Source of the DNA: Halarcobacter sp.
Lineage (GTDB): Bacteria; Campylobacterota; Campylobacteria; Campylobacterales; Arcobacteraceae
DNA length: 64,000 nucleotides
Assembly (NCBI GenBank): GCA_963676565.1
Contig: OY781089.1
Location: forward strand, 1,824,001 to 1,888,000
Direction of reading: 5' to 3'
Positions within the stretch are counted from its first letter, which is position 1. Each line of letters starts with the position of its first letter. Of the stretch, positions 37,542-40,500 are shown piece after piece. Position numbers: made by a program.

Positions 37542-40500
37542 TAAAAAAAGAGGTTTATAACAGCCTCTTTTTCTAAATTTCTGCGTTATCGCAGAAATTT
37601 TCTCACTCACTTACTTTAGTAAGCTCCTATCAAAAATTTTACTCTAGCCTTGAACTTTAAAAAAATAGTTTATTCTAAACTTCTTTTAAAATAGTTAATT
37701 TATATATTTATGAATAATTTAGTTATTTTAAAAGTATTTAAATATTATACTAGATATACTTTTCTAAAATTATTTTGAGGAAAATTAATGAACAATTTAA
37801 AATTATTATTGTTTAGCTTAGTTGTATTTGTTTTTACTGGCTGTATGTCATATCAGCCTTCCATCCCAGTTGATTATAAGGGAGATATAGCAAATATAAG
37901 GGATACTTCTATCATACATAGTAATCATAAAATTGACTTTTTCTATTTAGAAAAGATTAATGAAGATGAAATTTATAATAGCCGTTATAACACACTTGAT
38001 AAAAATTATGGTAGAGGTTTAACAATGTATCCATATTTGTTAAATCATGACGTTCCTACAAGAAAAGCAAAATTTACAATTGTAGGACGAACTGAGTATG
38101 CTGCTCCAATTTTAGCTTTAACAAATACTGTTTATGAAATAAAAGGTGTAATAGAATTTACTCCAGAAAAAAACAAACAATATGTTGTAAAAGGTTCATT
38201 AACTGAGAATGGTTCTATTGTATGGATTGAAAATGTTGATGATAATAAAATAGTTGGAAATAAAATTGAGGTTAAAGGGTCTACTGCACTTGGCTTCTTT
38301 GAAAAATAAAGAATTGATAAGTAAAAGGGGTAAAATGAAAAATTTAAAATAAAGGGGACAGGCACCTTTTCCCTTAAGTAAAAATATAGGGGTCAGGTAA
38401 TAACAATAACCATCAACAAAACTAATACTCCCTGAGTATAAAATAACACCTGAGAGAATGAATCTCCACTTTCATATTCTTAAAAAATAATACTCTTAGT
38501 GATTCCAAGAACTTGATTTAAAGTATCTTCATTTATTTTCTCTACAAACTTCACTTTTCTAGCATTGTAATCAATTGATTTAATTTGTTCAGTCATTATA
38601 AAGCCTGTTAGATTCTCACTTTTCACTTCAATATGAAAAGGAAAGTCTCTATTTGTATTTGTTATTGGACAAACTATTGATAAACCAAGTTTTTTATTAA
38701 AAGAAGTATTGCTAATAACTAATGCTGGTCTTCGCCCTTTTTGTTCATGTCCTGCTTGTGGATCAAAGGTGAGTATTACTAAGTCACCCTTTTCAGGAAT
38801 GTAGTTTTTTACCATTCTTCTTTTCCAACTGTTCCTATTATTTCTTCAGATGCTTTATAGTCATTAGGTACTTTGTCTAAAAGTGATTCAAGATTATACT
38901 CAGGAATATTTTGTTTAATAGGTTCAATAACAGCTTTCCCATCCACTATTGTAATATTTACATTATCACCAATATGTAGTTGTAACCTTTCCATTACATC
39001 TTTAGGAACTCTTAAACCTTGAGAATTACCCCATTTTGATATTTTGGCAGTCATTTTAACTCCTTTATGTATATCCAAAGTATATCATTTTAGTTTTTAT
39101 ATGTCAAATTATAATTATATTATGTAGATATGAGATACCTTTTCCCTTAAGAAGATGTTTTTTAATTGCAAAATGTTTTGAAAATCTATATAATTTTTGG
39201 ATATAGAAGTTTTTTATAGAGCTTGAATTTAAATAAATATAAAAGGAATAAAAGATTATGAAAATATTTAAGATTTTTATTTATAGTCTAACAATTTTTA
39301 CTATCTTTTCCTTATCCTTATTTGCAGACTCTTTAAATAAAAACAAAGAGATAGAAAAAGATAATATATCTACTAAAAACATAATTAAACTCGCAAAATC
39401 TAAACTTGGGAATCCTTATGTATACGCTAAAAGTGGACCAGATAGTTTTGACTGCTCTGGCTTTGTTTATTATATTTACAAAGAAAATAAAATAATCTTA
39501 CCAAGAACCTCTTTATCTCAATCACAAGTAGGAGAAAAAATTGCTCTTGAAGAACTTGAAAGAGGAGATTTAGTATTCTTTGATACAAGCTTAAAAGGTA
39601 AGGTAAATCATAGTGGAATATATCTAGGAAATGGAAAGTTTATTCATGCAAGCTCAGGAAAAGCAAACTCCGTGACTATTTCAGATGTATATGGGTGGTA
39701 TAAAGATAAGTTCAAATGGGGAATTAAAAAAAATACTTTAAATTAATTAGCCACTATCTTAGTTCTTATGTTTTTTGATATAGTATATTCATGTTATATT
39801 CATATTTGATTCATGTTGAATTCATAATAATAGTTTAAAATCGGTCTAAATTATTAATTTAGGAGAAGAATAATGAGTAAAGGTAAAATTATTTTAGGTA
39901 TAGCTGTTGTAGCTGTCTTAATTCAGTTTATTCCTTATGGAAAGGATTATACAAATCCTCCAGTAGTAAGTGAGCCTCAATGGGATTCAATGCAAACAAA
40001 AGTGTTGTTTGATAAAGCTTGTGCAAACTGCCATTCAAATAAAACAACTTATCCATGGTATAGCAAAGTTGCACCTATTTCTTGGTTGGTTGCATTTGAC
40101 GTTGAAGAGGGTAGAGAACACTTTAATGTTTCTATGTGGGGAGCACAAAAAAAGAATAAAGGTGATGAGGCAGCAGAAGAAGTAGAAGATGGTGAAATGC
40201 CTCCTTTTTATTATCTTCCAACACATCCTGAAGCTAAACTTACTCAAGCTGAAACTCAACAACTTATTTTAGGTTTAGAAAAAACTTTTGGTAGAGAATA
40301 AAAGAATAAGAATACAGGAATAGGGGTCAGGTGATAATACATGGCTCCTTCTTTCCTTGTTCTTATTGAGAATATGTATACTTGAAAAATAGGCAAGAAT
40401 TAAACAGAGATAGATATAATCCTCTTTCCAAAAGTTTAAAAGCGAGGAAATGATGAGATTAATATATGTAATGGATCCAATGTGTGCTTGGTGTTATGCT

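Follow-up and report, generated by a model that had tools for sequence, protein, structure and literature searches.

The ERIC or IRU repeats were described by Sharples & Lloyd 1990 and Hulton et al. 1991 (cited in PMC10969869, PMC3184786), and their published hosts are the Enterobacteriaceae and Vibrionaceae (PMC10969869). They are classed as MITEs with TIRs and TA flanks, and are described as being co-transcribed and as acting on the upstream mRNA via an RNase E site (PMC3184786, PMC10969869). The same two papers present REP/BIME, Correia/nemis, RUP and SPRITE as RNA hairpins at gene 3′ ends that alter mRNA stability or processing. Two further motifs, ffRNA-1 and ffRNA-2, were described by Stav et al. 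2019 (PMC6429828) from intergenic regions of Arcobacter sp. L, the type IGRs being NC_017192.1:411394-412153 and 619521-620256. In that account the ffRNA motifs are long stems whose internal loops are conserved; a species has many copies, the gene context varies, and the motifs are suspected of being selfish. They are listed for the Beta-, Gamma-, Delta- and Epsilonproteobacteria, the Bacteroidetes and a few Firmicutes. Finally, AS5 of V. cholerae is a 133-nt RNA that is positive by northern blot (Liu et al. 2009, PMC2665243).

The element considered here lies in a window of 64,000 nucleotides, the whole stretch of Halarcobacter sp. DNA that was analysed. The upstream housekeeping gene is guaB, encoding IMP dehydrogenase (36099..37544, + strand; from the ORF list, Pfam IMPDH E 1e-158), which ends in a TAA stop codon at 37542-37544. 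The initial annotation placed the element at 37563..37676 with + polarity, that is, sense with guaB. Downstream and co-directional is an ORF of 173 aa (37788..38309, + strand) with a signal and a lipobox-like N-terminus, for which no Pfam family was matched.

A covariance model (R1) built from 91 non-Campylobacterota copies only matches the element at full length (model positions 1-104) at 37564..37667 on the minus strand, with an E value of 3.3e-13 and 69 bits; the “forward” orientation of the family, which is that of the ERIC2 primer, corresponds to the minus strand of the window. Across the 3.34 Mb genome the R1 matches are exactly 12 copies (E 5.6e-16 to 5.2e-6; the next match has E 8.7), so that all of the copies listed in the initial annotation are present and the same set is recovered by an independent model. 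An E. coli chromosome gives 16 full-length R1 matches in which the ERIC primer sites occupy fixed positions (ERIC2 in 14/16, ERIC1R in 11/16), and the same repeat is present in 5426/5426 E. coli genomes. Since one model recovers both the 12 copies here and the primer-bearing repeats of E. coli, the element is an ERIC/IRU-type imperfect palindrome, and its membership of that family of MITE-like intergenic repeats is very probable. It is homologous to bona fide ERIC copies in sequence and in structure; its match of 104-106 nt, taken with the flanking helices, agrees with a palindrome of ~127 bp that has a conserved central inverted repeat; and it occurs in 12 intergenic copies, two of them intercistronic, in a setting predicted to be transcribed. 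TA adjoins both ends in many of 57 copies, which at 28% GC is a weak sign, and no filled and empty site pair with alignable right flanks was found among the loci compared. ERIC in the strict published sense it is not, the host being one of the Arcobacteraceae and not of the Enterobacteriaceae or Vibrionaceae.

It is clear that the homologues reach well beyond this group. A pattern of the conserved blocks matched more than 123 loci, the matches varying little in length (46-49 nt). They fall in Bacteroidota and Enterobacterales, in other Gamma- and Betaproteobacteria, and in Desulfobacterales and Clostridia. Furthermore, AACGCAGA, which was absent from the search pattern, was found 18-21 nt downstream in 89 of 120 matches. 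Within the phylum, two other families were covered with 113 genomes, of which 9 carry homologues. The earlier view of an element restricted to this bacterial family and without known relatives is therefore withdrawn: its homologues make up a cross-phylum family, with the enterobacterial ERIC/IRU repeats among them, and that ERIC-type family spans several phyla, far wider than its name. The element is neither new nor confined to its family, but a local branch of a long-known type. A BLAST search of the genome with the window copy finds only 2 of the 11 other copies; BLAST misses most copies here, and range estimates based on it are therefore too low. R1 has matches in 119 of 151 genomes of the family, with 0 to 26 copies each. 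As had been stated, there is no Rfam family for the element, in that no Rfam match at E<=10 overlaps it meaningfully in the window.

The copies are ~105-115 nt long and their placement is uniform. In all 12, the stop codon of a co-oriented ORF lies 0-25 nt away and the relative polarity is the same; elsewhere in the family the same stop-codon polarity is seen in 31/31 top-scoring copies, 30 of them at 0-29 nt. The fixed polarity behind housekeeping genes that the initial annotation had described is thus confirmed on both counts. The named upstream genes are guaB, nrdB, efp, secF, htpG, rny, mnmE, purH and ureF, the others encoding an HI0933-like flavoprotein, an RNase T-like exonuclease and a saccharopine-dehydrogenase-like protein. 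Polarity fits gene orientation in 12/12 cases and replication orientation in only 10/12. Two copies are intercistronic (ureF-ureG and a dehydrogenase-decarboxylase pair); these lie inside operons and therefore, judging from gene order, would be transcribed in the guaB-sense orientation. Three others face a convergent downstream gene (ribD-like, DUF2062 and one without a Pfam match). The description of the sites as borders to variable genes consequently holds only in part, the two intercistronic copies and the three facing convergent genes being exceptions.

Outside the family, the stop codon is found on the corresponding side of 29/54 Bacteroidota copies and on the other side of 2/54. Nearly identical copies stand behind the same gene in at least five genera, and another family of the order has copies behind uvrB and behind the same dehydrogenase gene as in the Arcobacteraceae. 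Copies that appeared to follow orthologues of a single “496-497 aa gene” were discarded as such, their lengths having been cut by the 1500-nt flank and Pfam identifying the genes as gyrB, uvrB and lepA. The Arcobacteraceae copies are old, diverged and few, the best pair in this genome being 80% identical.

Read on the minus strand, the architecture begins with a closing helix, TCAAGGC, a long covarying stem and GNAG, continues with a 5-bp hairpin (YWTAC/GTAWR), TGA and a stem, and ends with AACGCAGA and the second strand of the closing helix. In the window one strand of this closing helix, P0, is at 37564..37579 and pairs with the other at 37654..37667, where covarying pairs are seen in 58 copies. 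The + strand carries the conserved block TCTGCGTT (on the minus strand AACGCAGA) at 37580..37587, the apical hairpin CTTAC/GTAAG between conserved TCA and CTCC at 37607..37627, and the block GCCTTGA (minus strand TCAAGGC) at 37647..37653; the two blocks are conserved in alignments A1 and A3, and the apical hairpin consists of columns invariant in both. These alignments show little or no variation in the central GAG-CTTAC/GTAAG-TGA core. On the minus strand the hairpin is flanked by GGAG and TGA, which gives a G.U pair at its base, invariant in 91/91 non-Campylobacterota and 57/57 family copies, and possibly a tandem G.A.

The structure was set by hand on the cleaner alignment A3, and each pair was checked, because RNAalifold had resolved the structure only in part when run on the mixed alignment A2. 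In 58 copies from the family, paired cells make up 81.0% compared to 39.6-53.4% when slid, the covariation score is 0.466 compared to no more than 0.161, and two-sided changes occur in 27 of 31 pairs; the conserved, covarying structure of the initial annotation is upheld. P0 (model 4-15/153-164) is 84.5% paired in the same copies with two-sided changes in 12/12 pairs. The helix adjoining TCAAGGC is not kept in the family (45.6% paired), and in some copies it is replaced by a local hairpin on AACGCAGA. In the window copy the TCTGCGTT block does lie within an 11-bp local hairpin, at 37575-37600 in folds of both strands; as a general feature that hairpin is not confirmed, since at least five contiguous pairs are present in only 8 of 57 copies. 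Folding of 37563-37676 gave an MFE of -29.9 kcal/mol (z -4.8) for the + strand and of -34.4 (z -2.8) for the minus strand.

Immediately behind guaB is a terminator-like hairpin (A-run, GAGG stem, loop, CCTC, T-run; 37546..37572, + strand), identified from the fold and from the relative L138, where this hairpin stands behind guaB but the element is lacking. In the window the first bases of the element fall within the 3′ half of the hairpin, which is paired in the MFE and centroid structures of either strand. A simple consensus terminator scan missed it because its loop is longer than 8 nt, and called no site at all in 37400-37900, the stems having long loops and few G-C pairs. Further out, the arm TAAACTTCTTTT at 37676..37687 (+ strand) is by sequence complementary to AAAAGAGGTTTA at 37546-37557; the two form an outer helix peculiar to this locus, with the whole element inside it and a T run at its end. 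The same arrangement recurs at other loci. The flank duplex energy over 37 copies is -10.76 kcal/mol compared to -4.24 +/- 0.30 kcal/mol for mismatched partners, in L277 and L281 a perfect 11-bp stem with a T run behind it encloses the element, and by eye a stem and T run follow the stop codon at the guaB, nrdB, amt, uvrB and HI0933-like copies. These enclosing, locus-specific inverted repeats with their A and T runs differ from place to place, and the element therefore looks to be nested in, or by now a component of, the upstream gene's intrinsic terminator hairpin. The outer helices may have been terminators before the element arrived or may be its own ends, now diverged, L138 providing the only clean empty site, and guaB transcripts may end at the first T run, before the element core.

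If the element is transcribed together with the upstream gene, its RNA could act in cis as a long extension of the 3′-end or intercistronic hairpin, and such an extension would be expected to affect termination, read-through and mRNA decay; comparable effects on mRNA have been described for ERIC in Yersinia (PMC3184786, PMC10969869). The fixed polarity would then reflect what is tolerated or useful beside a stop codon. A cis-acting role at the terminator or 3′ end is the most likely mode of action, with a chance that falls a little short of even; the statement as a whole, which joins the ERIC-type identity, the nesting in terminators and the cis role, is about evenly poised between right and wrong.

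The strand signals bear directly on this role. Their conflict, which the initial annotation had pointed out, is real and has become sharper: in the closing helix, G.U outnumbers A.C by 66:5 on the minus strand (45:4 after collapse to 37 clusters), which counts against a cis role and in favour of a small RNA made from that strand, the family-forward one, yet the long inner stem has no such asymmetry (20:22). The expected deamination bias on the coding or leading strand would push in the opposite direction to the observed excess. The flank helices are slightly more stable on the strand antisense to the upstream gene (-10.76 compared to -9.9). The product would in this case be an RNA convergent with the housekeeping gene and ending at a shared bidirectional terminator, as in the “free-floating RNA” reading of Stav et al. 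Consistent with this, only the minus strand has the invariant G.U, and perhaps a tandem G.A, at the apical hairpin, a T run follows the outer helix on that strand too, AS5 (133 nt, northern-positive) has the family-forward orientation to judge from the V_AS5 matches, and internal loops kept across phyla suggest a trans-acting partner. However, -10-like boxes upstream on the minus strand show no positional enrichment (14/37, compared to 12/37 on the control strand), both neighbouring genes are on the opposite strand in 9/12 copies, two copies lie inside operons, and a free-standing sRNA gene would have no obvious reason to keep within 0-25 nt of a stop codon in 43/43 cases. The promoter and terminator scan of the window was uninformative. 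A small RNA as the functional product is considered distinctly unlikely.

Alternatively, the element may be a selfish miniature transposable element, or the fossil of one, with no host function; its structure and polarity would then come from the insertion mechanism, with a terminator hairpin or stop codon as target, and from the purging of harmful insertions. The published classing of ERIC as a MITE with TIRs and TA flanks (PMC10969869, PMC3184786) fits such an origin, as do the range of 0 to 26 copies among family genomes and the near-identical long TIRs that recur among different Bacteroidales genomes. Occupancy is also patchy: of 11 related guaB loci, 1 has the guaB copy and L137 keeps a decayed remnant; the HI0933-like copy is seen at 2 of the 13 loci compared, and L274 keeps a remnant of it. 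The TA at both ends of many copies is less telling, for TA is frequent by chance at 28% GC. Against such an origin, no transposase partner is known, and none came to light here, where no systematic search for one was made. What makes a purely selfish element unlikely is that the copies within the genome are old, the best pair being only 80% identical, and yet pairing has been kept through double changes, that nearly identical copies persist behind the same gene in at least five genera, and that the uvrB and dehydrogenase-gene positions are common to two families. A role at the level of DNA, in which the element would be a folded single-stranded site like attC or a transposon end that recombines variable genes behind housekeeping genes, would account for the accessory-looking genes after several copies (a putative AbiC, DUF2971, an orphan lipoprotein and then MazEF), for units of gene plus element 1-2 kb apart in some relatives, and for a variable sequence combined, as in attC, with conserved structure and unpaired blocks. 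The boxes of attC, at the base of the stem, are R″/R′ = RYYYAAC / GTTRRRY, and such sites come in arrays of cassettes with a linked IntI. The conserved blocks in A1 and A3 do not fit this consensus and the upstream genes are core genes, not cassettes, on which grounds an integron attC site was rejected; moreover two copies lie within conserved operons, the better-pairing strand is mostly not the lagging-strand template (10/12, as inferred from GC skew), and no recombinase was seen to be linked, though no systematic search was made. Any such DNA site is highly improbable. An IHF-site reading of the conserved blocks was likewise dropped after the alignments had been compared with the consensus.

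The identification removes a false “new RNA class” and sets the 35-year-old ERIC puzzle on a broader comparative footing: Campylobacterota and Bacteroidota show the same core and stop-codon polarity, and in both the few, old copies suit single-copy genetics. A bolder idea, somewhat unlikely as it stands, is that ERIC, the Arcobacter element, the Bacteroidota copies and probably ffRNA-1 form one ancient multi-phylum family, domesticated as a 3′-end or RNA-binding module. The loops UCAAGG / AACGCAGA and GNAG / UGA, with the invariant G.U, would be kept for a trans-acting partner, the strand whose folding is under selection would be that antisense to the upstream gene, and the fixed orientation at stop codons and terminators would mark the family as not mere MITEs. 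The word ERIC is absent from the main text and supplementary text file 5 of Stav et al. 2019 (PMC6429828). In the literature covered, which includes that study and two follow-up papers and lies mostly outside the subscription journals, no printed link between ERIC and ffRNA was found, and the subscription literature may hold one; within the same scope no published ERIC homologues in Bacteroidota or Campylobacterota were found.

Compared to the ffRNA motifs, the taxa listed for ffRNA-1 and ffRNA-2 agree with the range of the conserved-block matches, and the element is probably one of these motifs, likened to them by their published description and not by consensus. As far as that study's descriptions go, ffRNA-1 and ffRNA-2 are better candidates than HRC-4 and HRC-5, which had been proposed as a possible overlap and for which its supplementary table gives 14 examples each (PMC6429828). 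In the family-forward orientation, members from Serratia and Citrobacter align with the whole of Rfam RF02818 V_AS5, with scores (45 and 36.8 bits) far under the gathering score of 96; the window element itself gave no match to V_AS5 at E<=10. REP/BIME, Correia/nemis, RUP and SPRITE are analogues by placement, not relatives. With ERIC the likeness is that of an imperfect palindrome of ~105-127 nt, intergenic and multi-copy, with the same parts in the same order: closing helix, TCAAGGC, long stem, the GAG-CTTAC...GTAAG-TGA core and AACGCAGA. The stems of the Arcobacter element are, in contrast, AT-rich, the similarity in sequence being limited to the conserved blocks, and the polarity that is strict in Arcobacteraceae (43/43) is mixed in E. 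coli, with about 4 compared to 3 stop-proximal copies among 16. De Gregorio, in 2005, is said to have found that Yersinia ERIC copies beside stop codons also favour one orientation. The Arcobacteraceae copies differ, lastly, in being few and old, and in having a Campylobacterota family as their host.

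The element at window positions 37563-37676 lies 3' of guaB (IMP dehydrogenase, plus strand, Pfam E 1e-158), whose stop is at 37544; the stretch 37546-37572 holds, in order, an A run, a hairpin (GAGG/CCTC) and a T run, and the element follows the T run to about 37676. Immediately upstream of guaB is a GatA-like amidase-family gene (34716-36074, plus strand, Pfam E 4e-143). Two genes downstream of the element, past an orphan lipoprotein-like ORF, is a MazEF-type pair (38480-39078, minus strand; MazF/PemK-like toxin, Pfam E 7e-27, and MazE-like antitoxin, E 4e-12, with a 7-nt overlap), and further downstream an NlpC/P60 peptidase gene with a signal-like N-terminus (39258-39746, plus strand). 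The eleven further copies named in the initial annotation are all present in the genome, copies being at most 80% identical to one another, and nothing relevant was returned by an Rfam search of the window, in agreement with the earlier statement that the element matches no Rfam family. The aligned genome copies share three conserved blocks on the plus strand, TCTGCGTT, TCA-YWTAC-loop-GTAWR-CTCC and GCCTTGA, between which lie stems of copy-specific sequence whose complementarity is kept. The element folds better than shuffled sequences on both strands, at -29.9 kcal/mol (z -4.8) on the plus strand and at -34.4 kcal/mol (z -2.8) on the minus strand.

The minus-strand blocks were written as a pattern and scanned against a collection of species-representative genomes. 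At least 123 loci matched, with Arcobacteraceae a minority among the matches listed; the others came from Bacteroidota (Bacteroidales, Chitinophagales, Cytophagales, Flavobacteriales), Enterobacterales (Serratia, Rahnella, Citrobacter, Rouxiella, Edaphovirga, Buttiauxella, Rosenbergiella), other Gammaproteobacteria, Nitrosomonas and Desulfobacterales. Both isolates and MAGs are among those listed, for example Marinilabilia, Geofilum and Nitrosomonas eutropha; two are Clostridia, which are MAGs only and could be contamination. These matches are not due to chance, because the variable gap of the pattern is nearly fixed (total match 46-49 nt in most listed loci), 89 of the 120 distinct matches listed have, at a distance of 18-21 nt on their downstream side, a block that the pattern did not contain, AACG[CA][CAT]G, and the flanks pair. 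Nitrosomonas and some Gammaproteobacteria carry a longer subfamily (L023, L028, L032, L045, L053, L074, L120, L122 and L134) in which a TCAAGG-like block is duplicated, the pattern spans about 61 nt and the outer ends are conserved between genomes.

Ninety-one copies, none of them from Campylobacterota, were aligned and a 31-pair structure was assigned by hand; covariation is present in every helix. The covariance model built from this alignment (R1) finds exactly 12 full-length copies in the whole window genome (E 5.6e-16 to 5.2e-6, the next match being at E 8.7), all on the strand opposite to the polarity originally assigned. R1 places the element in 119/151 Arcobacteraceae genomes and 20/22 genera, at 1-26 copies each. 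In the phylum sample single copies were found in two other families (2/53 and 7/60 genomes), and none in the 31 genomes of ten further families. The supposed restriction to one bacterial family is thus contradicted both within the phylum and by the pattern matches in other phyla. Four loci from another family of the same order (L246, L250, L251 and L252) have one copy per genome, 6-9 nt behind a saccharopine-dehydrogenase-like gene, uvrB or lepA, two of these upstream genes being common to Arcobacteraceae copies.

What the element is becomes apparent from the enterobacterial matches. The Citrobacter copy corresponds to a repeat found in 5426/5426 complete E. coli genomes, where the median number of sites is 13, and a 4.64-Mb E. 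coli chromosome gives R1 matches to 16 full-length copies plus a partial one, e.g. between hsdR and hsdM. The primers printed in the literature as ERIC2 and ERIC1R have fixed positions in these 16 matches: allowing up to 5 substitutions, ERIC2 is found in 14 (perfect in 3) and the reverse complement of ERIC1R in 11 (perfect in 2). Against Rfam V_AS5, whose threshold is 96 bits, the copies from Serratia and Citrobacter reach a sub-threshold 45 and 36.8 bits; passages of PMC2665243 describe AS5 as an RNA of 133 nt detected by northern blot in V. cholerae. From the R1 matches, the primer sites, the E. coli repeat and the V_AS5 matches we infer that the element is of the ERIC/IRU kind and that the minus strand of the window is its forward strand (the sense of ERIC2 and V_AS5). 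The original observation stands, but not the claims that the element is new and restricted to one family. A suggested overlap with motifs HRC-4 or HRC-5 of Stav et al. 2019 (PMC6429828), whose genomes include Arcobacter sp. L, also gives way: in the supplementary table these have 14 examples each, ffRNA-1 has 4460 and ffRNA-2 621. The latter two, described in that study as long stems whose internal loops are conserved, with many copies in a species and a range over Beta-, Gamma-, Delta- and Epsilonproteobacteria and Bacteroidetes, are the candidates that fit the element much better. The word ERIC is absent from the main text and supplementary text file 5 of that study, and from two follow-up papers.

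The structure is retained within the family. When 58 Arcobacteraceae copies were aligned to R1, 81.0% of cells were paired, where sliding the partners gave 39.6-53.4%, covariation scored 0.466 against at most 0.161, and 27/31 pairs had double-sided changes; 0/500 shuffles attain any of these measures, although the 58 copies are related and their independence is overstated. This bears out the earlier description of a structured, covarying element. The helix adjoining TCAAGGC is not conserved in these copies (45.6% paired). A local hairpin on AACGCAGA has 11 bp in the copy behind guaB, but just 8/57 copies form one with at least 5 contiguous pairs.

Placement is regular. With the forward strand as reference, 12/12 copies have a convergent ORF on their 3' side, its stop 0-25 nt from the model end, and so do the 31/31 top-scoring copies from other Arcobacteraceae genomes; the fixed polarity behind stop codons holds in all of these. 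Gene orientation (12/12) predicts polarity better than replication direction (10/12, from our mapping by GC skew). The upstream genes are housekeeping genes: guaB, nrdB, efp, secF, htpG, rny, mnmE, purH, ureF and HI0933-like, RNase T-like and saccharopine-dehydrogenase-like genes here, and gyrB, uvrB, dapD, nadC, fabI, amt and a MatE gene in other genomes of the family. That the downstream genes are variable is true only in part: they do include a putative AbiC, a DUF2971 protein and the orphan lipoprotein followed by MazEF, but the gene beyond has the direction of the upstream gene in 9/12 copies, in two of them as its operon partner (ureG-like; Orn/DAP-type decarboxylase), and is convergent in three. 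This polarity is no peculiarity of Arcobacter: in Bacteroidota a stop codon (ORFs of at least 100 aa, stop within -30 to +40 nt) lies on the corresponding side in 29/54 copies and on the other in 2/54.

The flanks outside the model are mutually complementary within each copy and different in sequence between copies; true partners have a mean duplex energy of -10.76 kcal/mol versus -4.24 +/- 0.30 for 200 permutations of the partners (best -5.15). Behind guaB, 37546-37557 is complementary to 37676-37687, giving an outer helix around the element. Such helices usually lie between an A run and a T run, and in two relatives the entire element behind the HI0933-like gene sits within a perfect stem of 11 bp, after which come T's. 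In one relative (L138) the guaB hairpin is present and the element absent. We read the element as probably nested in, or fused with, the terminator of the upstream gene; alternatively, the outer helices could be its own diverged ends.

Some sites are widely shared: at least 5 genera have near-identical copies behind the HI0933-like gene, and another family of the order has copies behind uvrB and the same dehydrogenase gene as in Arcobacteraceae. Others are patchy: the guaB copy is found in 1/11 related guaB loci, and the HI0933-like copy in 2/13 further loci. Decayed remnants with partly kept blocks are seen behind guaB (L137, about 5000-5130) and the HI0933-like gene (L274, about 2680-2740), neither matched by R1 at E<=1. 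One relative has 26 copies. Several pairs 1-2 kb apart, mostly in a single orientation, form gene-plus-element units (G003, contigs C2, C3, C4 and C14; L085, L232 and L223), and L223 has two adjacent copies. Alistipes and Mucinivorans MAGs (L017, 2441-2705; L070, 2441-2737) contain near-identical tandem copies at spacings of 122 and 154 nt, and near-identical long terminal inverted repeats recur in different Bacteroidales MAGs. Such near-identical copies and repeats suggest recent spread in Bacteroidales. In Rahnella a lysine riboswitch (83.8 bits; L031, 4477-4665), unrelated to the element, is found some 2 kb away from an ERIC copy.

The strand signals conflict, as the initial annotation had noted. 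The fixed site behind stop codons and two intercistronic copies favour the guaB-sense strand, which mRNAs would carry because of this position. The closing helix favours the antisense (forward) strand, with G.U against A.C at 66:5, or 45:4 after collapse to 37 clusters; the inner stem has no asymmetry (38:27, or 20:22). Cytosine deamination bias on the coding and leading strand would be expected to run opposite to this excess. The invariant G.U is confined to the forward strand, which also gives flank helices of slightly higher stability, and Vibrio AS5 has the same orientation. Against an independent antisense gene speaks that no positional -10 signal is seen (14/37 copies compared to 12/37 on the control strand). 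Among the working models, the likeliest has the element co-transcribed with the upstream gene; as a terminator-embedded hairpin it would influence, in cis, how 3' ends form and mRNA decays. An antisense small RNA is a rival. A MITE fossil without function is a further one; the decayed remnants and patchy sites stand on its side, and the pairing kept through double-sided changes on the other. Least likely is a DNA recombination site, for which the gene-plus-element units might speak.

The element is thus a new lineage of the known ERIC type. Unlike the Arcobacteraceae copies, ERIC copies of E. coli are of mixed orientation; De Gregorio et al. in 2005 are reported to have found that those Yersinia ERICs that adjoin stop codons favour one orientation.
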